A stretch of 64,000 bases of DNA, from NCBI GenBank assembly GCA_038748025.1, contig JBCDJI010000010.1, forward strand, positions 69,453 through 133,452, written 5' to 3'. The notes below the pieces were generated by a model. That model worked only from the letters and a program-made list of their open reading frames with translations. It did not search any database and was not told where the DNA came from. This DNA comes from Verrucomicrobiota bacterium. Its GTDB lineage: Bacteria; Verrucomicrobiota; Verrucomicrobiia; Methylacidiphilales; JBCBYL01. Of this stretch, positions 2,757 through 63,270 are shown piece by piece. Position 1 is the first letter of the stretch, and every line of letters starts with the position of its first letter. A program made the translations under genes and the position numbers.

Positions 2757-2824
2757 CATTTATCCGTTTGCAAAACTTAAATAGTGTTATATGTCTTACC
2801 TCTAACCATTAGGAGAAATAAATA

Positions 2825-3610
2825 ATGCCCGAATTATCATTAGGTCAATACGAACTCGTATATAATATGTTGTCATTGACGATCGCATGCATGTTTGCAT
2901 CTTTCGTCTTTTTTGTTTTAAGCAAAAACACCGTCTCTCCCCGCTATCGCGGATCTGTCATCGCCTCCGCGATTGTGGTCTTCATTGCCGGATACCACTA
3001 TGTCAGGATCTTCGGCAGCTGGGAAGGTGCCTATCAGCTCGCCGGAGGCGGCGGGTCATATGTGGCAACCGGCGAGCCATTCAACGATGCCTACCGCTAT
3101 GTGGACTGGCTACTGACCGTTCCGCTGCTCATGGTGGAACTGGTTCTGGTCCTGAGTTTGTCTGCTGCACTTACCAAGGAACTGATTGCCAAACTGGGAG
3201 TTGCTGCATTTTTGATGATTGCTTTGGGATACCCGGGGGAAATTGACCGTGAAAGTACAGAGCTTTTCTCTAACCGCGGACTATGGGGTTTTCTCAGTAC
3301 CATCCCGTTTGTCTACATTCTGTATACGGTATTCACTCAGCTGAAGATTGCCATGGGTAAAGCTTCCAAAGAAGTGGCCGTCTTGTTACGGAATGCAGGA
3401 TTGCTGACCCTCTTCACCTGGGGATTTTACCCGATTGCTTTTATGGCCCCGTTCTATGGCTTACAAGGCGGTGATGCCGAGGCCATTCTGCAGGTCGGAT
3501 ACAGCATAGCGGATATTACTGCAAAATGCGGATATGGTCTGATCATCTTTGCAATCGCTCGTTTGCGGTCTGCTGAAGAAGGTTATGAAGGTGCTGTTTC
3601 ACACAAATAA
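2825..3610 (+). CDS. Microbial rhodopsin, xanthorhodopsin/Gloeobacter-rhodopsin-like outward proton pump (DTE motif)
   Basis: Helix C RYVDWLLTVPLLMVE gives D/T/E at the BR 85/89/96-equivalent positions. The retinal Lys is in SIADITAKCGYG. The His partner is in GYHYVRIF. The N-terminus LGQYELVYNMLSLTIACMFAS resembles GR/XR, and there is no signal peptide. AGGAG lies 8 nt upstream of the ATG. Confidence 0.9.
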   Translation: MPELSLGQYELVYNMLSLTIACMFASFVFFVLSKNTVSPRYRGSVIASAIVVFIAGYHYVRIFGSWEGAYQLAGGGGSYVATGEPFNDAYRYVDWLLTVPLLMVELVLVLSLSAALTKELIAKLGVAAFLMIALGYPGEIDRESTELFSNRGLWGFLSTIPFVYILYTVFTQLKIAMGKASKEVAVLLRNAGLLTLFTWGFYPIAFMAPFYGLQGGDAEAILQVGYSIADITAKCGYGLIIFAIARLRSAEEGYEGAVSHK

Positions 3611-5942: not shown

Positions 5943-7028
5943 TTAGAGGGTTTTAAAATCGGTATATCCGGCAGCTCCTTTGGGTTCATACCAGTCGGCC
6001 ATGTCCGCTTCCGGATTCAGTTCAGCACCAGCCGCAAATCGTTGCGGCAAGTCGGGATTGCTGATGTAGGGGCGACCGAAGGCAATCAGATCGGCATGAC
6101 CTGCCGTAATCGCAGCTTCTGCAGTTTCCCGGGTGTAGCCGCAGTTGCCGATCAGTGTGCCGTCGAAAACTGCACGAAATTCCGCCAAAGTCATCGGTTC
6201 GCCGAGTTCATGGAAGCCGAAGGCCAGTCCGTCCATCACGTGCAGATAGCCAACTTTCATCCGATTAAGCTGTTTCGCGACGTAAGTAAACTGTTCCCGA
6301 TAATCCGGCGAACCCATATCATTGAACGCACCATTCGGAGCCAGCCGGACGCCCACGCGTTCTGCGCCCCAGATTTTACTAACCGCCACGATGACTTCCA
6401 ACAGCAGGCGGGATCGTTTTTCGACGTTACCTCCGTAGCCGTCGGTGCGGTGGTTGGTTTTCGACTGCAGGAACTGATCCAGCAGGTAGCCATTGGCAGC
6501 ATGCACTTCGACTCCGTCGAATCCGGCATCCTTAGCTCGTCGTGCAGCGGATTTATAATCGGCCACGATGCCTTTAAGCTCCTCCGTTTCGAGCGCTCGT
6601 GGCACTTCATGCGGCTGCTTACCTTCGGGGGTGTGAATATATTCCTCGTTGATGGCGATCGCTGAAGCCGAGACGGAGAGTTCCCCATCGTGGAAACTGC
6701 TGTGCGAAGCACGACCACAATGCCACAGCTGCAGGAAGATCGTTCCGCCCTGAGCATGTACCGTATCCACCGTTTGCTTCCAGCCCTCGGTCATCTCATC
6801 GGTGTAAATCCCCGGCGATTGCACCCAACCCAGACCCTGTTTAGAGATACTGGTGGCTTCGGTAATAATCAAACCTGCCGAAGCACGCTGGGCGTAATAC
6901 TCAGCCATCAGATCATTCGGGATGCGTTGCTCACCTGCACGCGCGCGCGTCATGGGTGCCAGTGTGATTCGGTTTTTCAGTTCCATATTTCCCAGTTGAA
7001 CGGGAGTCAGTAGTTTTTGTTCGGACAT
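5943..7028 (-). CDS. Old Yellow Enzyme family NADH:flavin oxidoreductase / alkene (N-ethylmaleimide) reductase
   Basis: 361 aa. LKNRITLAPMTRARA...WHCGRASH...GFDGVEVHAANGYLLDQFL...GNCGY is an NemA/OYE-type TIM barrel signature. Confidence 0.85.
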   Translation of the reverse strand: MSEQKLLTPVQLGNMELKNRITLAPMTRARAGEQRIPNDLMAEYYAQRASAGLIITEATSISKQGLGWVQSPGIYTDEMTEGWKQTVDTVHAQGGTIFLQLWHCGRASHSSFHDGELSVSASAIAINEEYIHTPEGKQPHEVPRALETEELKGIVADYKSAARRAKDAGFDGVEVHAANGYLLDQFLQSKTNHRTDGYGGNVEKRSRLLLEVIVAVSKIWGAERVGVRLAPNGAFNDMGSPDYREQFTYVAKQLNRMKVGYLHVMDGLAFGFHELGEPMTLAEFRAVFDGTLIGNCGYTRETAEAAITAGHADLIAFGRPYISNPDLPQRFAAGAELNPEADMADWYEPKGAAGYTDFKTL

Positions 7029-25467: not shown

Positions 25468-27909
25468 TTATTCCATACCTGCTTCCCTGACCAGTTGATC
25501 GGATTCAAGTTCCAGTAACGCCGCCACGCCGCCCCCATCAATTGTTTCTTTACCCACTTCCAGAATGACCGGAATCGCAAAGGGAGAGATACGTTCGAGT
25601 CGCACGAAATGATGATGTCCCTGTGCTTCACTCAGCACGGCGTGCAAACGATCGCTGTTTACCATACCACGCGCTGCTTCAACGCGGGTAGCCTCCAGCA
25701 GCACGTGATCGGGCTCATATTGATGCAGCACATCGTAAATTAAATCGGAGGAAAAGGTCACCTGGCGACCCGACTTGCGTTTGCCGGGCAGTTGCCGGTC
25801 GATGAGCCCCGCGACCACCGCCGTTTCCCGGAATGTGCGTTTCATCCAGAAGGACTGATCCAGCCAGGTGCCCAGTTCCTGCTGAATGATTTCAGGATCC
25901 AGCAACGCTGCTGCCGTTGCGGCATCAGCGACCGGTTTGAGTGACCACACTGCCAGGGAGTAATCCGTAGTGACAAACCCCATAGGCTGCAGTCCGCATT
26001 TCTCCATCCGCTGAGTCATCAGCATACCTAAAGTATGATGAGCCGCCTTTCCTGCAAATGGATGCATCACCAGAAACTGCATTTCCTGGCGTGAAAAAGA
26101 CTCAACCAGAAGTTCATTCCTCTGCGGAATATGTGAGCGCCGGTCCTGCCAGGCCAGCCACTGCTGCACCGGCCCCGGAAAATCCGGCCAGTGGTTCCGG
26201 TCCGCAATGCGATCCCTCACTCGTTGTGCCAGTGGACCGGAGAGTGGTAATCTTCCTCCGGCAAAAGCAGGAATCTTAGGCGTATCCCCTTTGGCAGGTT
26301 CGGTTATTACCATCATTTCACGCACACTTTTAAACTCCAGCAAGCGGCCCGAAAACAAAAACGTATCGCCTGGTTGTAGTCCCTGAATAAACCGCTCTTC
26401 CACCTCACCCAGATGCATCCGCTTCCCCATCCGGATTTTAAGATGGGTATAACCGACGATGGTGCCAATATTCATCCGGTAATTGCGCGCGATGCGCTGG
26501 CTAGCTATCTGCAGTCTGCCATCCGGCAATGTCTTAAGCTTGCGGAACTGTTCATACGCTTTCAATGCATAGCCGCCGGTTGCCGCAAAATTTAACGCCC
26601 GGTCAAACAGCTCGCGCGACAATGCGCGATAAGGTCCGGCTGCTTTCACCTCGGCAAATAGCTGGTCGGTCCAAGCCGGGCTTGAACAACATCTTCCTGT
26701 AAGATGCTGGATCAGCACGTCCATGCTGCCGGTGCGTCGGTAATGATTGTCCAGATCATTGACGGTAATGGCATCAATCGCAGCCAGTGCTTCTATGGTT
26801 TCCATCCGGTTCGTCGGAACCAGCACTGCTTTACTTGCCTTGTCCAGTTGGTGATTGGATCGCCCGATGCGCTGCATCAGTCGAGCCACCCCTTTTGGCG
26901 GTCCGATCTGCACCACCAGATCCACGCTGCCCCAGTCGATCCCCAGATCCAGTGACGAAGTGGCCACTACGGCTCGGTATTCTCCATTCGCCAAATCCTG
27001 CTCCAGCTCCAGCCGGTGTTCGCGATCCAGACTACCATGGTGTAGCGCTATGGGCAGGTCCTCATGATTCATCTCCTGCAGGGCCTGATAGGTGAGCTCC
27101 GCTTGTGCCCGGGTATTGACGAATACTATGCTGGTCTGATGCTGGAGGATCATCTGTATTATTTCCGGAATGGCATAGCGTCCGCTGTGCCCCGACCACG
27201 GCAAGCGATCCGTAGCCTCCAATAAAGTGATGTCAGGCACAGCTTTGGTAACCATCTGCTGCTGGTAGGCATTAATGACCCTTACCTGCTCCGGATTCCG
27301 GGCATTCAGATATCCAGCCAGCTCTTCCGGTTCCGCGACTGTGGCAGAGAGCGCAATCAGTTTCAGCTTCGGATTTGCTTGCCGCAGCCGCGCCAGGTTC
27401 AGAGCTAACAGATCGCCCCGCTTGTTGTCCGCCAGCGCGTGCAGTTCATCCAGAATCACATAATCCAGATGTTTAAAATACGCCTCGGCATCCGCGTAGG
27501 AATGGATCAGCGCCAACGACTCCGGCGTCGTCAGCAGCATGTCCGGCGGGTCGGTCATCTGCTTTTTGCGCTGGTAGCTGTTGGTATCGCCGGTGCGGAC
27601 TTCGCACCGCAGTCCCAGTTTCATTTCCAGCAGCGGCACCTGCAGGTTGCGGTGAATGTCTGTAGCCAATGCCTTGAGTGGGGAAAGATAAAGCATCCGC
27701 AGTTTGGATTTAGAAGCAGAAGCTGCCGCCGCATCGATCAGCCCGGGTAGAAAACCCGACAATGTCTTTCCGCCACCAGTTGGAGCAATCAGCAGCACCG
27801 TATCTGCCGAGTGACTCGCCTCAATGACATCCAGCTGGTGCGGATACGGCGCCCAACCACGCGACTCGAACCAATATTGAAAGCGCTCAGGAAGTTTTGT
27901 CATTTTCAT
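25468..27909 (-). CDS. lhr: Ligase-associated DNA damage response DEXH-box helicase (Lhr-like)
   Basis: APTGGGKT (Walker A), ILDELH (DExH), SATV, HHGSL...TSSLDLGID...QIGPPKG..RIGRSNH. The start is MKMTK (27909) or MTK (27903). Confidence 0.85.
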   Translation of the reverse strand: MKMTKLPERFQYWFESRGWAPYPHQLDVIEASHSADTVLLIAPTGGGKTLSGFLPGLIDAAAASASKSKLRMLYLSPLKALATDIHRNLQVPLLEMKLGLRCEVRTGDTNSYQRKKQMTDPPDMLLTTPESLALIHSYADAEAYFKHLDYVILDELHALADNKRGDLLALNLARLRQANPKLKLIALSATVAEPEELAGYLNARNPEQVRVINAYQQQMVTKAVPDITLLEATDRLPWSGHSGRYAIPEIIQMILQHQTSIVFVNTRAQAELTYQALQEMNHEDLPIALHHGSLDREHRLELEQDLANGEYRAVVATSSLDLGIDWGSVDLVVQIGPPKGVARLMQRIGRSNHQLDKASKAVLVPTNRMETIEALAAIDAITVNDLDNHYRRTGSMDVLIQHLTGRCCSSPAWTDQLFAEVKAAGPYRALSRELFDRALNFAATGGYALKAYEQFRKLKTLPDGRLQIASQRIARNYRMNIGTIVGYTHLKIRMGKRMHLGEVEERFIQGLQPGDTFLFSGRLLEFKSVREMMVITEPAKGDTPKIPAFAGGRLPLSGPLAQRVRDRIADRNHWPDFPGPVQQWLAWQDRRSHIPQRNELLVESFSRQEMQFLVMHPFAGKAAHHTLGMLMTQRMEKCGLQPMGFVTTDYSLAVWSLKPVADAATAAALLDPEIIQQELGTWLDQSFWMKRTFRETAVVAGLIDRQLPGKRKSGRQVTFSSDLIYDVLHQYEPDHVLLEATRVEAARGMVNSDRLHAVLSEAQGHHHFVRLERISPFAIPVILEVGKETIDGGGVAALLELESDQLVREAGME

Positions 27910-28312
27910 CCGCAGATGACGCAGATTTTCGCAGATTAAATACCAATCTTTTATATTGGAGGCTCGGGGCACCAAAATTAATTAGCAGCCCTCGGTTTAG
28001 GCCTGTGGCTTTGAGATAATTGATTACTTGAGATTCTTCTACGCCGGTTAGTTTTTGCAGAGCTTTCAATTCTACAATGACCATACCATAACAAATAAAA
28101 TCTGCCTGATATTCTGCGATGACCTCACCCCGATACGATACCGGCAAGCGAACCTCTCGTTCATACGGAATGCCTTGTGCCAGGAAATCCTTTTCGAGCG
28201 CCGTCTGATAAACTGCCTCTAAAAAACCATGCCCTAATTCACGATGGACGGTCATGGCTACACCAATAATGTCATAAGTTTCTTTATCTTTGTTTTTAGA
28301 ATCTGCGTCCAT
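27887..28312 (-). CDS. GxxExxY protein (PD-(D/E)xK nuclease-like), copy 1
   Basis: TVHRELGHGFLEAVYQTAL carries the GxxExxY motif. ADFICYGMVIVELKA has the D...ELK nuclease-like motif. The C-terminal 15 aa are encoded by the repeat arm. Confidence 0.85.
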   Translation of the reverse strand: MDADSKNKDKETYDIIGVAMTVHRELGHGFLEAVYQTALEKDFLAQGIPYEREVRLPVSYRGEVIAEYQADFICYGMVIVELKALQKLTGVEESQVINYLKATGLNRGLLINFGAPSLQYKRLVFNLRKSASSADENDKTS

Positions 28313-28329
28313 CTGCGAAATCTGCGGAT
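27908..28329 (-). mobile_element. GxxExxY cassette 1: gene bounded by inverted arrays of 3 phased CGCAGAT heptamers
   Basis: Arm 27908..27937 is atcCGCAGATgaCGCAGATtttCGCAGATt. Arm 28300..28329 is aATCTGCGtccATCTGCGaaATCTGCGgat. The arms are in inverted orientation with 9-10 bp phasing. Confidence 0.4.
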
Positions 28330-44256: not shown

Positions 44257-44949
44257 ATGCCCATAGAGGAATCACAGAAGCCACGCCCCTGCTGGTGGCG
44301 CCTGCCTTGGGATCTGTTGCTAGCTCATTTTTCCGAATGGGCACGTTTCCGGAAACCGACGACGCTTCTCCTGCTAGCCGTCAGTCTGGTCTCCTTAATA
44401 CTCTACCTCCAGGATGCGGAGCTGGCTGCCCGGGTCAGTCCCGAACATCGTGCAGGATGGGTCAATGAGCTGGCGCGAGGATTGAGCTACTGGGGTGATT
44501 TTCTGACCTTCTGTATTCCCGTGGGCGTATTATTCTGGCTTGGCGGCGCGTTGCTGAAACGAATTCCCTGGCAACGTGCTGGCGTTGCCTGCCTGCTCGG
44601 AGCATGCCTGGCCGGCCTGACCGCTGATTTGATCCAGTTCTCCGTCGGCCGCGCCCGGCCTCGCCATGATACAGAGATACAATTTGCTCCCTTTAATACT
44701 AAAACGGAACAGCACTCCTTCCCTTCCGGACATTCCGCCACCGCCTTCGGCAGCGCAACTGCTCTGGCTGTATGCTATCCCCCCGTCTCGGTTCCCCTGC
44801 TGCTGGGTGCCAGCGGTGTGGCGTGGTCACGCGTCTATCTGGGTGCGCACTACCCTTCCGACATCGTGATGGGCAGCGGTATTGGATTGGTTTTTGGCTT
44901 CCTGCTTGGAAAGACCGCCCGAAAAACTAGAACCACTAATGAACACTAA
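44257..44949 (+). CDS. PAP2 superfamily phosphatase (membrane)
   Basis: The acid-phosphatase motifs are RARPRH, PSGHSATAF and SRVYLGAHYPSD. The last 5 codons and the stop lie in a heptamer-repeat arm. Confidence 0.7.
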   Translation: MPIEESQKPRPCWWRLPWDLLLAHFSEWARFRKPTTLLLLAVSLVSLILYLQDAELAARVSPEHRAGWVNELARGLSYWGDFLTFCIPVGVLFWLGGALLKRIPWQRAGVACLLGACLAGLTADLIQFSVGRARPRHDTEIQFAPFNTKTEQHSFPSGHSATAFGSATALAVCYPPVSVPLLLGASGVAWSRVYLGAHYPSDIVMGSGIGLVFGFLLGKTARKTRTTNEH

Positions 44950-45022
44950 TTATCTGGAAAACCAGCACTCTTGATATATGAAAAAAGAAATTAGTGAAAA
45001 TTAGTGTCCATTAGTGGTTAAA
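44931..45022 (+). repeat. Cargo-less heptamer doublet (CACTAAT type) at the PAP2|mnmG junction
   Basis: The 5' arm is aacCACTAATgaaCACTAAT (44931..44950). The 3' arm is ATTAGTGaaaATTAGTGtccATTAGTGgttaaa (44990..45022). 44989..45022 is 34/34 identical to the reverse complement of 60490..60523. Confidence 0.85.
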
Positions 45023-58226: not shown

Positions 58227-60488
58227 TTACACAGCCATGCACCTGGAAATCGCCCCACGATAACTGTCCTGGAGGTGGGATAAGCGAAATTCCAGTGTGC
58301 CAGATTTTAATATGACTCGCGATAACTTGTGCTCAGCAGTAACACCAATCTTTTGTGCATTCACCTTTAATCCACTAAACTGAGCAAGCAAGGCTTCTGT
58401 TTGGGTAGCCTCCGTGGTCAAGATGGCGCGGCCTTGTGTTTCGTTGAAAAGCAAGATATCAGGTCGCAAACAAGAAGTAGCAAAATCCACTTCATACCCG
58501 ATACCACTGTTCACCGCTGATTCTGTCAGCGCCAGTGCCAGCCCGCCGTCACTGATATCGTGCGCACTTTGGACCATACCCTGATGAATGACAGCACGCA
58601 CCGCATTCTGAAATCTAACCTCTGCTTCCAGATTCATTTCCGGCGGCATTCCTTTTTTAATTCCGTGGATTTCATATAAGAAAGCAGAAGCTCCCATCTC
58701 ACTGCCTTCGCCGCCGACCAGCACGATGTCGTGACCGGTCGACTGGAAATCCGAAGGAGTAATATGTTCGCGTTCTTCGATCAATCCTACCATAGCCATG
58801 ACCGGAGTCGGATCGATGGAACATTTCGGGTTCTTATTATAAAGACTGACATTTCCACCGGTGACAGGCGTTGCAAACGCACGGCAAGCTTCAGAGAGTC
58901 CTTCCACTGATTCACGGAATTGCCAGAAAACTTCCGGATCATGTGGATTTCCAAAATTCAGATTATCGGTGCAGCCGATCGGCAGGGCACCCGACATGGT
59001 GCAGTTCCGGGCCGATTCCGCGACAGCAATCATTGCCCCTCGGCGTGGATTCAGCGAACAATAGCGCCCATTACAATCCGCGGCCATGGCAATAAAGCGT
59101 TCGCCTCCGCTCTCGGTTTCAATGCGGATTACGGCAGCATCACCGCCCGGCACCAATACCGTATTCTTCTGCACCTGATGATCATACTGGCGGTAAACCC
59201 ATTCTTTCGAAGCGAGGCTGGGAGAATTCATGAGCGTGACCCAGTGCTGGGCCAGTTCCTCGGGCGCAGGCGAAGAGGGGAACTCTGCTTCGTAAGAGAA
59301 GGACTGAAGTGTCTTGAGGCCAGACGGCTCACGAACTTCACGATGATAGAGTGGTGCATCATCGGCCAACTCACGTGAGGGCACATCAGCTACCACATCA
59401 TCGCCAACCTTGATTACCGTCCGGCCGGTGTCCGTTACGTAGCCGATCTCAGCAGCATCCAGATCCCATTTGGCAAAGATGCGGCGCACCTCATCTTCAA
59501 AGCCTTTCTTTACGATGATCAGCATCCTTTCCTGCGATTCAGAGAGCATGATTTCATACGGCGTCATCCCGGTTTCACGCTGCGGCACCAGATTGAGGTC
59601 TACTTCAATGCCGGAACCTCCACGGCTGGCAGTTTCAATCGTCGAACAGGTCAGTCCGGCAGCACCCATGTCCTGCACGCCGACGACGGCCTCCGGATGT
59701 TGAAATAACTCCAGGCACGCCTCCAGCAACAGCTTCTCCATGAATGGATCCCCCACCTGAACTGCCGGACGATCTTCTTTGGATTCTTCTGTCAGGTCGC
59801 GTGAGGCGAAGGCGGCACCGGCCAGACCGTCCCGTCCGGTTTTGGCACCGACATAGAACACCGGATTGCCTACCCCGGATGCCGCTCCACGGCGGATCTG
59901 ATCATGCCGCAGGATGCCGAGATTGAAGGCATTTACCAACGGATTTCCATTGTAAGAGGGATCAAAGACGACTTCTCCCCCAACAGTCGGAACACCAATA
60001 CAGTTGCCGTAGTGGGCAATACCTTCCACTACTCCGGCCAGCAGCACGCGGTTGCGTTTGGCCTCCGCCGAGTCGCCACAGATCGGACCGAAGCGCAGTG
60101 AGTTCAAATTAGCGACCGGGCGTGCCCCCATGGTAAAGATATCGCGCAGGATACCGCCGACGCCGGTCGCCGCTCCTTGAAACGGCTCTACTGCACTCGG
60201 GTGGTTGTGGGATTCAATTTTAAAGCAGACGGCCATATTGCCGCCAATGTCGAGCACCCCGGCGTTTTCCTCTCCAGCTTTTACCAGAATCTTATCTCCT
60301 TCGGTCGGGAATTTTTTCAGTTCGGCACGTGAATTTTTATACGAGCAGTGCTCACTCCACATGACCGAAAAGATTCCGAGCTCGGTAAAGTTAGGCTCAC
60401 GTCCGAGAATCTCGAGGATGTGTTCATACTCCTCCGGTGTAATGCCGTGTTTATCGATCAGTTCAGGGGTAATTGCGGGATCTTTCAT
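58227..60488 (-). CDS. purL: Phosphoribosylformylglycinamidine synthase subunit PurL
   Basis: [14 protein letters not shown]...[25 protein letters not shown]. 753 aa. Confidence 0.95.
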
Positions 60489-60492
60489 TTTT

Positions 60493-60929
60493 AACCACTA
60501 ATGGACACTAATTTTCACTAATTAACGAACCACTCTCTTCCATTCTAGTTGGGGGTGGCTGGCAAAATTAATCAGGTAGCCAACTTTCATGCCTGCTGCT
60601 TTGAGGTAATTAAATAACGGAGCAAAATGCTCCGGTGCCAGTTTTTGAACAGCCTTTAGTTCTACTGTAATTTTTTCACTTACGATCAAATCCGGTTCGT
60701 AAGTCTGATTTAAAGAGCGCCCTTTATAATAAAGTTTTAACTTCGGCTTGGATTTGAAGGAGATATTCTGAATATCCAGCTCGTGTTCCAGGCATTCCTG
60801 ATAAACAGCTTTCAGAAAACCACTTCCTTTTTCATTATAGACTTCAAAAGCGGCAGCCATTAGTTCGTAGCCTTCCTGGTTGTATAAATTTTCCCCGTCA
60901 TTAGTGGCCATTAGTGTTAATCAGTGGTT
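60493..60929 (-). mobile_element. GxxExxY cassette 2: gene bounded by inverted arrays of 3 phased CACTAAT heptamers, inserted between purQ and purL
   Basis: Arm 60493..60523 is aacCACTAATggaCACTAATtttCACTAATt. Arm 60900..60929 is ATTAGTGgccATTAGTGttaATCAGTGgtt. The phasing is exactly 10 bp. Confidence 0.4.
60522..60911 (-). CDS. GxxExxY-family protein (PD-(D/E)xK nuclease-like), copy 2
   Basis: EVYNEKGSGFLKAVYQECL is the motif with E replaced by K. EPDLIVSEKITVELKA gives PD...ELK. 129 aa. Confidence 0.85.
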   Translation of the reverse strand: MATNDGENLYNQEGYELMAAAFEVYNEKGSGFLKAVYQECLEHELDIQNISFKSKPKLKLYYKGRSLNQTYEPDLIVSEKITVELKAVQKLAPEHFAPLFNYLKAAGMKVGYLINFASHPQLEWKRVVR

Positions 60930-61607
60930 TGATAACAGTGAATCGAAGAGTTTCTTGCCGTTGTCAGATCCAAGCAGGATTTCAGCGGCACGCTCCGGGT
61001 GGGGCATCATGCCGAAGACGTTGCCTTCACGGTTGCAGACGCCGGCAATGTTGGATACCGAGCCGTTGGGATTTGCTGCTTCGATCGCTTCCCCGTTTTC
61101 ATCCACGTAACGGAAAATGACCTGCCCATAAGATTCCATTTCTTTGAGCGTATCCTGATCGACAGTATAGTTGCCCTCTCCGTGGGCGATGGGGATCTGA
61201 AGCAGCTCCCCATCGTGCATGTGGGCAGTGATTTTAGTCCGGCTGTTGTCTACCCGCAGCGTCACTGTTTCACAGATGAAGTGCATATCGCGGTTTCGCA
61301 CCAACGCTCCCGGCAGCAGTCCCGCTTCACATAAGATTTGAAACCCGTTACATATCCCGATGATGGTTTGTCCATTGGCGGCCGCTTTTTTGACTGCATG
61401 CATAATTGGAGAAAAGCGGGCAATGGCACCGCATCGCAGATAATCCCCATAGGAAAATCCACCCGGGACGATGATGGTTTCATCGGGCTCCAGCGTTTCT
61501 TCTTTGTGCCAGACCATACGTGCCGGCTGGCCCATGACATCCCGGACGGCCCGCAGGCAATCCTGGTCACAATTGGAACCGGGAAATTGGAGAACAGCAA
61601 ATTTCAT
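60921..61607 (-). CDS. purQ: Phosphoribosylformylglycinamidine synthase glutaminase subunit PurQ
   Basis: FAVLQFPGSNCD...GICNGFQIL...MPHPER. The last 2 codons and the stop lie in the repeat arm. Confidence 0.95.
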   Translation of the reverse strand: MKFAVLQFPGSNCDQDCLRAVRDVMGQPARMVWHKEETLEPDETIIVPGGFSYGDYLRCGAIARFSPIMHAVKKAAANGQTIIGICNGFQILCEAGLLPGALVRNRDMHFICETVTLRVDNSRTKITAHMHDGELLQIPIAHGEGNYTVDQDTLKEMESYGQVIFRYVDENGEAIEAANPNGSVSNIAGVCNREGNVFGMMPHPERAAEILLGSDNGKKLFDSLLSNH

Positions 61608-61624
61608 AGTGATGTCTTAAAACT

Positions 61625-61711
61625 AACCACAGAGGACACGGAGGCCACAGAGCAGGAACATTTAATAAATCCGTTTTTAAAAGCTCTGTGTTTCCTGTGT
61701 CCTCTGTGATT
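61625..61711 (-). repeat. Cargo-less heptamer doublet (CACAGAG type) filling the purS|purQ junction
   Basis: aacCACAGAGgaCACGGAGgcCACAGAGc, a 29-nt spacer, then gCTCTGTGttTCCTGTGtcCTCTGTGatt. The phasing is 9 bp. Confidence 0.8.
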
Positions 61712-61717
61712 TAAAAA

Positions 61718-61960
61718 TTAGGGGGTTATTTCAATCCGGTAGTCTTCGATGACCGGGTTGGAGAGCAGGTCATGCGCAACCTCTTCCAGCCTGGCGCGCG
61801 TTTTTTCAACATCGCTTCCCTCGATCTCCATTTCAATGTATTTGCCGATCCGGGTGGTACCGACGCATTCCATTCCGAGATTATGGACGGCTTTACGCAC
61901 CGCTTCCCCCTGAGGGTCGAGAACCGTTGTCTTCGGGGTAACAATCACTACTGCTTTCAT
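61718..61960 (-). CDS. purS: Phosphoribosylformylglycinamidine synthase subunit PurS
   Basis: 80 aa. VLDPQGEAV...LG...V...RIGKYIEMEIE is typical of PurS. Confidence 0.9.
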   Translation of the reverse strand: MKAVVIVTPKTTVLDPQGEAVRKAVHNLGMECVGTTRIGKYIEMEIEGSDVEKTRARLEEVAHDLLSNPVIEDYRIEITP

Positions 61961-62040
61961 GAAGACTCCTTACTAGCGGGGAGACCCAGAAGTACACGCA
62001 GAAAATGACCGAAAGGTAAAATAATCTGCTGTATCAGATA

Positions 62041-63270
62041 CTAGAACTTATATCCCACGCTCGCCGTCAGGGTATGAAAGGTATATTCATAATCTCCATC
62101 CACAGACTGGCCTGCTGCACTGGGAGTGCTGCCGGAGACGGTTGTATCACCATTGATAAACTGATACGACAATGCATAGGTCCAATTCTTTCGTTCATAA
62201 GACCCGCCGATACTAAATGCATGCAGCGGAGTATCTGGAACCGCCGGGTTGTAGTTGATATCCTTGACGTTGTTTTCCGTATAAAAATAGCCCCCACTCA
62301 GCGTAAATCCGTTATCAAAATAGTAACTGAGTCCAAATTTATACATAAATCCGGATTTGTAATCAAAAGGGACGATTAGATTGGCGTTCCCAGGCGTCGG
62401 ACGCTCCAGGATGACATCTCCAATTTCATCCCAATTGGTGTATTCCAGATTGAATTCGACATTCCATTTAGGCGTCGGCCGGTAGGAAACACCGAAGGCA
62501 AAGGTGCTGGGAAAACGCACTTCGGCTTCAGAGTCCTCGACAGGGGAGATCGGACGAAGCATCAGATCTCCTTCATGGTCCACTTTCGTGGCACTGCGAT
62601 AATTAAAGCCAAACGACCATTCAGGAACAGGTTGCCAAAGCACCCCGGCACTGAATCCGAAGTCGAAGCCGTTTCCATCAAAACTGAGCTCGTCGGCAGA
62701 ACTGGTTCCTCCGGGAAATAGGCCATTCTTTAACTGGATCTGGCTGTAGTTGATGGTGGGCCCCATGGCAATCGACAACCCCTCAGTAACTTCCCAGGCA
62801 ACAACCGGATTAACACTGGTATACTGTAATGAAGCTTTGGTCACAAAAGTGCGAAAACCGGTGTCCTCCGGCCAGCTGAGTTTGAGACCGTAGCTATTGT
62901 TAATACCGAGGCCAAAAGCTAGCGGTAAGCTTTCGGGGTTATAGGTATAATAGAAATGAGGCACCGGCACAATGCGAAGATCGGTTTCCGGACTGGCTCC
63001 GGTCGGGCTGGTATACTGTGAATTAAGATAAACATTATAACTCCCGAAGGAAAGCTGGTGGCCTTCCAGTTGCGTAATACCAGCAGGATTGTAATAGACT
63101 GCAGAGGGATTGTCAGCCGTCGCGACGAATGCATTCCCGCGAGCGATGGCTTCAGCATCCTGATTGGGAACTCGGTATCCCAGTGACCAGGCGCTGTGCT
63201 GTAGACTGACAGTGCCGGCAAAAGTGATGAAAAAACAAACCCACGATATAAAATGCTTACGGATACTCAT
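62041..63270 (-). CDS. Outer-membrane transport protein, OmpP1/FadL/TodX family (hydrophobic compound channel)
   Basis: Signal peptide. N-terminal GYRVPNQDAEAIARGNAFVATADNPSAVYYNPAG hatch region. C-terminal aromatic terminus ...SVGYKF. Confidence 0.8.
   Translation of the reverse strand: MSIRKHFISWVCFFITFAGTVSLQHSAWSLGYRVPNQDAEAIARGNAFVATADNPSAVYYNPAGITQLEGHQLSFGSYNVYLNSQYTSPTGASPETDLRIVPVPHFYYTYNPESLPLAFGLGINNSYGLKLSWPEDTGFRTFVTKASLQYTSVNPVVAWEVTEGLSIAMGPTINYSQIQLKNGLFPGGTSSADELSFDGNGFDFGFSAGVLWQPVPEWSFGFNYRSATKVDHEGDLMLRPISPVEDSEAEVRFPSTFAFGVSYRPTPKWNVEFNLEYTNWDEIGDVILERPTPGNANLIVPFDYKSGFMYKFGLSYYFDNGFTLSGGYFYTENNVKDINYNPAVPDTPLHAFSIGGSYERKNWTYALSYQFINGDTTVSGSTPSAAGQSVDGDYEYTFHTLTASVGYKF

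Follow-up and report, generated by a model that had tools for sequence, protein, structure and literature searches.

A gene-less doublet of heptamer arrays between purS and purQ is one form of a widespread GxxExxY-nuclease cassette

What kind of element fills the spacer between purS and purQ in the purSQL operon of a Verrucomicrobiota bacterium, and what keeps it there? The operon lies in the stretch of 64,000 nucleotides analyzed here (the window), which comes from a metagenome-assembled genome (MAG). The spacer holds two inverted arrays of the heptamer CACAGAG separated by a short loop, an arrangement that we call a doublet. A preliminary description of the locus regarded it as a non-autonomous member of a repeat family whose cognate gene lies elsewhere, with a possible role as a stabilizer or attenuator of the mRNA. 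As described below, the doublet is the gene-less form of a very widespread, almost undescribed cassette that carries a gene for a GxxExxY nuclease. The mRNA role is only weakly favored, and not as the primary one. The features of the locus are as follows.

58227-60488, minus strand: purL (753 aa)
60921-61607, minus strand: purQ (228 aa)
61608-61717, minus-strand operon: purS|purQ spacer, 110 bp
61622-61627, minus strand: outer flank Gttag, 3' of the 3' arm (compare the family consensus G-[T/C]-[T/G]-AAA); kept in the sister MAG L210
61628-61652, minus strand: 3' arm of the doublet, CTCTGTG gc CTCCGTG tc CTCTGTG on the mRNA strand, CACAGAGgaCACGGAGgcCACAGAG on the plus strand
61653-61683, minus strand: loop of the doublet, 29-31 nt, A/T-rich
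61684-61708, minus strand: 5' arm of the doublet, CACAGAG ga CACAGGA aa CACAGAG on the mRNA strand, CTCTGTGttTCCTGTGtcCTCTGTG on the plus strand
61709-61717, minus strand: outer flank tttttaaaT, 5' of the 5' arm (compare the family consensus TTT-[A/C]-[A/G]-C; the T here gives a U.G pair on the mRNA strand)
61718-61960, minus strand: purS (80 aa), NF004630, E 9e-28

On the mRNA strand, the spacer reads taatttttaaaT CACAGAGgaCACAGGAaaCACAGAG c-29 nt-g CTCTGTGgcCTCCGTGtcCTCTGTG Gttagttttaagacatcact ATG, with three units of the CACAGAG type per arm at 9-bp phasing. This layout of two inverted triple arms 29 nt apart had been proposed in the preliminary description and is confirmed by the sequence and by a repeat search, which delimits inverted arms at 61625-61653 and 61683-61711 (29 nt each, 79% complementary, 29-nt gap). 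The earlier alignment of the arms stands in part. The outer heptamers (units 1 and 3) pair perfectly and the degenerate middle units (CACAGGA / CTCCGTG) and inner spacer are unpaired, as stated, but the outer spacer ga/tc also pairs and the count is 23/29 rather than 21/29. The distance from the end of the last heptamer to the purQ ATG is 20 nt, or, as previously noted, 17 nt if the adjoining gtt is counted with the arm.

Two simple explanations are that the doublet arose by chance as an inverted repeat or is left over, without present activity or function, from an earlier insertion or deletion. It carries no gene, its middle units are degenerate, and its cognate gene is not seen in the window. 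Chance is excluded by three results. A two-unit pattern with up to two mismatches has eight matches in the window against 1.37 expected, a number reached in none of 100 shuffles, and the top four of these matches all fall at the purS|purQ locus. The predicted fold of the doublet is far more stable than that of shuffled sequences (see below). A generic detector that looks for an array with an inverted partner returned no matches in 10 Markov-shuffled windows; under its exact-seed rule, it picked up the three other family members in the window but missed the purS|purQ doublet itself. Two independent Logan assemblies carry an 81-nt doublet identical to that of the NCBI MAG contig (GCA_039025795.1). 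The doublet is thus genuine, far beyond chance, and no assembly artefact.

The long segmented hairpin that had been envisaged on the mRNA strand is recovered by RNA folding, with a predicted energy of -42.7 kcal/mol (z = -6.4, equaled by none of 200 shuffles); the DNA fold has a z of -6.9. Such a hairpin favors a reading in which the doublet acts in cis within the purSQL mRNA, whether as a site for processing (by RNase III, for instance), as a stabilizer of the purS 3' end, as a partial terminator or attenuator, or as a means of stop-start coupling, and so sets subunit ratios. Weighing against it, the doublet was not called in a terminator scan, having a loop of about 30 nt and a tail, GUUAGUUUUAAG, with only a short displaced U run. 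An intrinsic (rho-independent) terminator, defined by a GC-rich stem with a short loop and a U tract directly after it, was rejected on these grounds. No Rfam family reached its threshold in a scan of 60300-62100; the best match, MIR408, scored 21.8 bits against a 64-bit threshold, and all matches were generic, sub-threshold hairpins of the miRNA type.

The window contains four members of one repeat family, namely two gene-bearing cassettes and two gene-less doublets. Those other than the purS|purQ doublet are listed here, with the gene of the purQ|purL cassette on its own line.

60496-60926, minus strand: gene-bearing cassette at purQ|purL with CACTAAT arms, consisting of CACTGATtaaCACTAATggcCACTAAT, a GxxExxY gene, and ATTAGTGaaaATTAGTGtccATTAGTG
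60522-60911, minus strand: GxxExxY gene of this cassette, 129 aa (TIGR04256, E = 2e-37; PF13366 PDDEXK_3)
27911-28326, minus strand: second gene-bearing member, with CGCAGAT arms; GxxExxY gene at 27887-28312
44934-45019, plus strand: second gene-less doublet, of the CACTAAT type, CACTAATgaaCACTAAT ... ATTAGTGaaaATTAGTGtccATTAGTG

Both internal junctions of purSQL are therefore occupied, as had been claimed. The cassette at purQ|purL is wedged closely between its neighbors: the purQ stop codon falls within its first heptamer, and the purL ATG follows the end of its last heptamer at a distance of 7 nt. The second gene-less doublet lies where an open reading frame (ORF) for a membrane phosphatase-like protein ends and an MnmG-like gene begins. 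In this doublet, the right arm with its flank (44989-45022) is identical at 34 of 34 positions, spacers included, to the right arm of the purQ|purL cassette (60490-60523), which lies 15 kb away. In several loci, the end of the upstream host gene, both its final codons and its stop, comes from the first heptamer: PurQ ends in ...NH* in the window (60900-60926) and in L205, and PurS does so in L124 and L128:1440-1460. The CGCAGAT-armed gene stands at the head of an Lhr-like helicase gene, divergent from a pair encoding a ligase-associated metallo-beta-lactamase and an ATP-dependent ligase. Its heptamers are translated into the annotated termini of the GxxExxY ORF (MDADSKN..., ...NLRKSASSADEN).

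For comparison, the family was defined operationally as at least two, and typically three, near-identical CRCNRAK heptamers at 9-10-bp phasing, with an inverted partner across a loop or a GxxExxY gene. Inverted heptamer arrays were found by a strict detector at both ends in 57 of 77 usable metagenomic GxxExxY loci, and further ones were recognized by eye. In the lineage of the window, all three loci containing a GxxExxY gene are bracketed in this way. The heptamers all fit CRCNRAK and include CACTAAT, CGCTAAT, CACGAAA, CGCGAAT, CACGAAT, CACAGAT, CACGGAT, CGCAGAT, and CACAGAG. Two layouts occur, in which the gene lies either between two arms or between two complete doublets (L140, L152, L188, L203, L083). 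In L140 and L152/L153, the two doublets that flank the gene have identical loops. The GxxExxY genes are tightly packed and co-directional with their neighbors (41:3 upstream, 34:5 downstream), which indicates that they ride on host operons and is also a point in favor of an RNA element.

Heptamer type is correlated with the protein. Mean protein identity falls from 0.57 between loci with identical heptamers to 0.45 between those with three to four differences (Mantel r = -0.39; none of 2000 permutations as extreme). Clades with the motif ..LINFNV..LK.GI.R are accompanied by CACAGAG, those with VGYLINFG..EWKRF by C[AG]CT[AG]AT, and those with ..SLEHKR by CGCAGAT. An RNA element leaves this tracking of the protein clade by the heptamer unexplained. 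GxxExxY genes with CACAGAG arms on both sides are found in L204, L210, and L076 in the standard layout and in L083 in the reversed layout, and the proteins so armed form a separate clade. The purS|purQ doublet itself has a triple array of the CRCNRAK type with an inverted partner, and its heptamer is one that brackets GxxExxY genes elsewhere; it hence belongs to the family as defined. The preliminary description fared well on these points: the window contains no GxxExxY gene with CACAGAG arms, and such genes are present in other genomes. Orthologous cassettes of the CACAGAG clade (69-76% identity) carry CGCAGAG in L211 (5/6 units; 1400-1500, 1897-1930) and CACGGAG in L213 and L214 (downstream arms), from which it follows that all units of a cassette change together. 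A concerted change of units, between CACTAAT and CGCTAAT, is likewise seen upstream of hemL.

When one genome per species was scanned for exact matches to CACAGAG-N2-3-CACRGRR-N2-3-CACAGAG, at least 120 loci were returned, where about nine were estimated by chance. Among the matches listed, such arrays occur in Planctomycetota, Acidobacteriota, Chloroflexota, several proteobacterial classes, Bacteroidota, Verrucomicrobiota, cyanobacteria, and one archaeon, and 89 of them form inverted doublets, whose loops span 4-592 nt (median about 45). The archaeal case is a MAG of Ca. Ethanoperedens thermophilum (L073:2508-2584 and 6634-6879). Doublets of differing heptamer types are nested in one another in L036, L037, L109, and L208. 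Two other loci show unusual arrangements: in L118:703-1131, a whole CACAGAG doublet with the same loop is present in four tandem copies, and in L015:5600-5800 (Oscillochloris), nine CACAGAG units in a run abut six ATCTGCATA units.

The 89 doublets share an outer frame, in the order A-rich, TTT, [A/C], [A/G], C, arms, G, [T/C], [T/G], AAA, T-rich. Position 1 of the flank is C/G in 81%, and position 2 is A-T or G-C, complementary in 89%, which shows that the two sides covary. At purS|purQ, the frame is ...tttttaaaT|...|Gttag, with T/G instead of C/G at position 1 and pairing at positions 2-3. An initial interpretation of the flanks as an 'anti-terminator' (U-rich 5', A-rich 3') was dropped after this census, in which the sequence beyond the TTTAAC/GTTAAA frame is A-rich on the 5' side and T-rich on the 3' side. 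This A-rich and T-rich polarity fits an RNA element, as does the location of the doublets mainly in transcribed spacers, with neighboring genes co-directional in 36 cases, convergent in 16, and divergent in six. Other properties of the arms are at odds with it. The heptamers are about 95% paired and have the same sequence across phyla, whereas complementarity in the intervening spacers of 2-3 nt is only about 40%. A structural stem needs no identical heptamers across phyla and would not leave its spacers mostly unpaired; the combination instead points to sequence-specific recognition by a protein. The expected sense-strand excess of G.U over A.C mismatches is also absent (17 sense versus 12 antisense), a comparison that is uninformative on RNA versus DNA.

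The history of the two junctions was reconstructed from relatives of the window, given here with the identity of their PurQ to that of the window where available.

Window (PurQ 100%): empty CACAGAG doublet at purS|purQ; CACTAAT-armed gene at purQ|purL
L210, sister MAG (94.3%): orthologous empty CACAGAG doublet at purS|purQ; CACAGAG-armed gene at purQ|purL
L204 (93.4%): empty CACGAAT doublet at purS|purQ; CACAGAG-armed gene at purQ|purL, protein 34% identical to that of the window
L205 (90.4%): empty CACGAAT doublet with a loop of about 100 nt at purS|purQ; CACTAAT-armed gene at purQ|purL, protein 68% identical to that of the window
L206 (77.2%): no element at purS|purQ, 33-nt spacer; nothing at purQ|purL, 13-nt spacer
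L208 (73.7%): GxxExxY gene at purS|purQ with CACGAAT arms nested in CACTAAT arms; 124-nt spacer with mixed arms at purQ|purL
L211 (69.3%): empty CACGAAT doublet at purS|purQ; CGCAGAG-armed gene at purQ|purL
L124: GxxExxY gene with CACTAAT arms at purS|purQ; nothing at purQ|purL, 12-nt spacer
L128: GxxExxY gene with CACTAAT arms at purS|purQ; nothing at purQ|purL, ATGA overlap

Across these genomes, the purS|purQ junction either lacks an element or holds an empty doublet or a gene-bearing cassette, and the heptamer type varies as well. With two alleles at each junction, the window, L204, L205, and L210 between them display all four possible combinations, and in L210 an empty CACAGAG doublet and a CACAGAG-armed gene stand 0.7 kb apart. 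No GxxExxY remnant was found in any purS|purQ loop, that of the window included. The loops of the window (CACAGAG) and L204 (CACGAAT) doublets were considered as homologs, but their shared ..gttcc.. is the generic pyrimidine-rich loop end of many doublets; the change of type between them is accordingly read as replacement of a whole doublet and not as rewriting of the arms in place. The gene-less element in the purQ|purL spacer of L208 (3185-3308) is a hybrid that combines a left-hand unit of the CACTAAT type with right-hand ATCCGTG units, which suggests recombination between doublets of different types. Close homologs of the CACAGAG clade (L210, L211/L212, L213, L214, L204) lie directly upstream of purL, where the preceding gene is purQ, gatA, or that for 6-phosphogluconate dehydrogenase. 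Other GxxExxY genes lie directly upstream of hemL (L129, L130, L139, L143). In both cases, the linkage is to the 5' end of a single housekeeping gene and is specific to the clade.

The comparison with L210 bears most directly on whether the doublet is inert. Between the two genomes, the arms and inner flanks are identical at 65 of 70 positions (about 93%), whereas the loop and 3' tail are identical at 20 of 42 (about 48%; Fisher p = 1e-7), and the purQ DNA is 83.8% identical. The arms of the gene-less doublet are conserved above the level of purQ, and its loop and tail below it; the arms are thus actively kept, a pattern not expected of a decaying relic. Taken with the exclusion of chance, this makes an inert or accidental doublet a highly improbable explanation. 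Conservation of the arms but not of the loop is also in line with a cis-acting RNA element. So is the overlap of purQ and purL in gene-free relatives (ATGA, L128), where looping out an insert could matter. On the whole, we regard it as rather unlikely that the doublet is in the first place such an element, but this role is compatible with the explanation favored below and does not exclude it.

The protein encoded by the full cassettes has the features of a nuclease. The AlphaFold2 model of a CACAGAG-clade protein (predicted local distance difference test, 91.5) has a minimal PD-(D/E)XK core in which D71, E81, and K83 are invariant. Its nearest solved folds in a Foldseek search are Cas4 SSO0001 and lambda-exonuclease-like enzymes (E about 1e-3, TM about 0.5), with a weak match to 3r3p; no sequence relative was found in the Protein Data Bank (PDB). 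PHROGs gave no match, PADLOC gave only a weak match of the PD-(D/E)XK domain to a DRT accessory model (E = 6e-4), and no relatives were found among the viral contigs searched. The PF13366/TIGR04256 family is nevertheless very large, comprising about 11,000 representative clusters (50% identity) at E <= 1e-3, and was listed with 'Unknown' function in a 2012 survey of the PD-(D/E)XK superfamily. Some members (e.g. P0249, P0255, P0257, P0269) are 250-295 aa in length, contain a matched stretch twice, and are thus GxxExxY proteins with two domains in tandem.

On these grounds, we consider it on balance probable that the purS|purQ doublet is a non-autonomous element whose heptamers are sites of a cognate nuclease, and that repair triggered by this nuclease copies, swaps, and homogenizes the arms. 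The full cassette would consist of a gene for a small PD-(D/E)XK GxxExxY nuclease between two inverted arrays of about three CRCNRAK heptamers each. The heptamers would serve as sequence-specific binding sites for the cognate GxxExxY clade, each arm holding one protomer per turn of the helix. Once the nuclease has cut, host repair would follow, by homing or by copying akin to gene conversion. Such a cycle would let cassettes and doublets settle at operon junctions, replace one another there, and persist. It would also keep the six units of an element alike and make them change in concert, conserve the arms of an empty doublet while its loop drifts, and account for the clade-specific heptamers and for the 34/34 identity between the arms of a cassette and an empty doublet in the same genome. 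The doublet, transcribed within purSQL, would form a strong hairpin, and any effect on the operon would be secondary. Mobility or homogenization of the doublet is in each case something that we infer from sequence comparison.

Several observations weigh against this explanation. In this genome, of which the 64-kb window is the part examined, no gene of the CACAGAG clade is seen, and among the CACAGAG matches listed (at least 120), only L076 and L083 have a GxxExxY gene within the 8 kb examined. The loci compared include no recent insertion, no empty-site pair, and no target duplication. Genes of the CACAGAG clade stand upstream of purL in five loci that differ in their upstream genes, a distribution that vertical linkage fits at least as well as transposition. 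A hydrolytic nuclease of 125 aa cannot alone carry out strand transfer, and conservation of the arms could also reflect a function at the level of the host. Remnants of a gene are present in only one of 44 longer loops, that of L090:4329-4513, where a frameshifted N-terminal GxxExxY remnant (LTAQIIAAAIEVHRH...) between CACAGAG arms is the sole clear internally deleted cassette found; this one case in itself speaks for gene loss within the arms. The proposition that every empty doublet is a visibly deleted cassette was consequently rejected.

A function at the host level has in fact been proposed for similar sequences. In Geobacter metallireducens, Aklujkar et al. 2009 (PMC2700814) annotated paired tandem-repeat sites on opposite strands, in classes 1-3, as putative sites of integration host factor (IHF) or a global regulator. 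Class 2 comprises 21 pairs with three TCTCCGTS[Y] repeats, and proB and proA are separated by one of the class 3 pairs. The CTCCGTG of the purS|purQ middle unit, the reverse complement of CACGGAG, fits class 2, which is of the CACGGAG/CACAGAG type. As in the present family, the Geobacter sites have three to five tandem repeats of 7-9 nt on opposite strands at variable distance, also within operons (proB|proA). As judged by the 2009 description only, they are very probably the same kind of object as the doublets. They differ in being reported from one genome with a guessed function, and in having no link to GxxExxY genes, no clade-specific heptamers, and no phylum-wide distribution. By extension, the arrays described here could be sites of a host nucleoid protein or global regulator (IHF/HU-like), and phasing of 9-10 bp would place such sites on one face of the helix. 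However, there are many heptamer types per genome, each tracking a GxxExxY clade, for which a single host regulator is insufficient; the 2009 assignment was a guess made without data; and the sites bracket GxxExxY genes in the 57 of 77 loci noted above. It is therefore very unlikely that the arrays are primarily regulator sites of this kind.

Among characterized systems, that of REPINs and RAYTs (repetitive extragenic palindrome (REP)-associated tyrosine transposases; PMC3116915, PMC2817692, bioRxiv 10.1101/2021.07.10.451892) provides the closest working analogy. Both systems have a small gene flanked by an inverted short motif that is matched to the clade, together with many gene-less hairpin doublets in transcribed spacers that persist for a long time at orthologous sites. 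The REPIN-RAYT enzyme is an HUH/Y1 transposase, whereas a PD-(D/E)XK nuclease of about 125 aa is found here; its arm is one GC-rich palindrome of 20-35 nt, in contrast to about three heptamers at 9-10-bp phasing with free spacers. Membership of the REPIN-RAYT system fails on these differences in enzyme class and arm architecture. The present family also has several paralogous genes per genome, co-directional inside operons, and extends over many phyla. The resemblance to REP and bacterial interspersed mosaic elements (BIMEs) is that of intercistronic hairpin-forming repeats inside operons, but these are built differently at the sequence level and occur in association with a RAYT transposase, IHF, or gyrase. 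Assignment to REP, BIME, or REPIN was rejected because the arms are arrays of a 7-nt unit with unpaired spacers and not a single GC-rich palindrome of 20-40 nt. An association with RAYTs was also rejected, since the array-bracketed genes, to which the search was confined, are PF13366/TIGR04256 and not Y1 transposases.

Other mobile elements agree less closely. [quoted passage not shown] Unlike in MITEs, a DDE transposase parent and a target-site duplication are not seen, and copies share only their arms and not their internal sequence. Flanks are inverted rather than direct, there is no insertion sequence parent, and no filled and empty pair is close enough to define the ends. Free-standing homing endonuclease genes (phage T4 seg/mob; I-Bth0305I, PDB 3r3p) also comprise a small nuclease gene wedged between conserved genes, at a junction that is occupied, empty, or of another allele in relatives, and I-Bth0305I is likewise of the PD-(D/E)XK type. 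They differ in having no flanking repeat arrays and leaving no gene-less doublets. Tandem heptamer repeats (cyanobacterial short tandemly repeated repetitive (STRR) sequences; TAACTGA of Beggiatoaceae, PMC4679880) share heptamer units, an intergenic location, and a patchy cross-phylum distribution. In contrast to the doublets, they are contiguous direct repeats of period 7, rarely inverted, and have no associated gene. Integron cassettes, CRISPR, and plasmid iterons were rejected on architecture alone. For integrons, the loci examined show a single gene with repeats on both sides inside housekeeping operons, and no cassette array or integrase was present among their called genes, although no dedicated attC/intI search was made.

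A published link between GxxExxY/PDDEXK_3 proteins and heptamer arrays was not found in the literature searched, but may exist in subscription journals, which were outside its coverage. Unrelated to the doublet, the window also contains an ORF at 2822-3610 with rhodopsin-like motifs (..DAYRYVDWLLTVPLL..), probably a pump of the proteorhodopsin/xanthorhodopsin type.

The evidence also allows a more general proposition, which we advance tentatively. GxxExxY/PDDEXK_3 proteins may be the nucleases of unrecognized selfish cassettes at operon junctions, with clade-specific arms, in which repair seeds long-lived gene-less doublets in many phyla and at least one archaeon. If true, this would give the first functional handle on the very large PF13366/TIGR04256 family and explain intergenic repeats whose annotation since 2009 has been that of putative IHF sites. 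Alongside REPIN-RAYT and independently of it, the cassettes would also represent a second kind of system with co-evolution between a short repeat and its enzyme in bacterial genomes. The system is embedded in core operons, including purSQL and the region upstream of hemL. Its arrays are easily mis-translated into the ends of genes, as seen for the purQ stop codon and the termini of GxxExxY ORFs within heptamers. They also mark places of recurrent allele swapping and can thereby confuse synteny analysis and metagenome binning.

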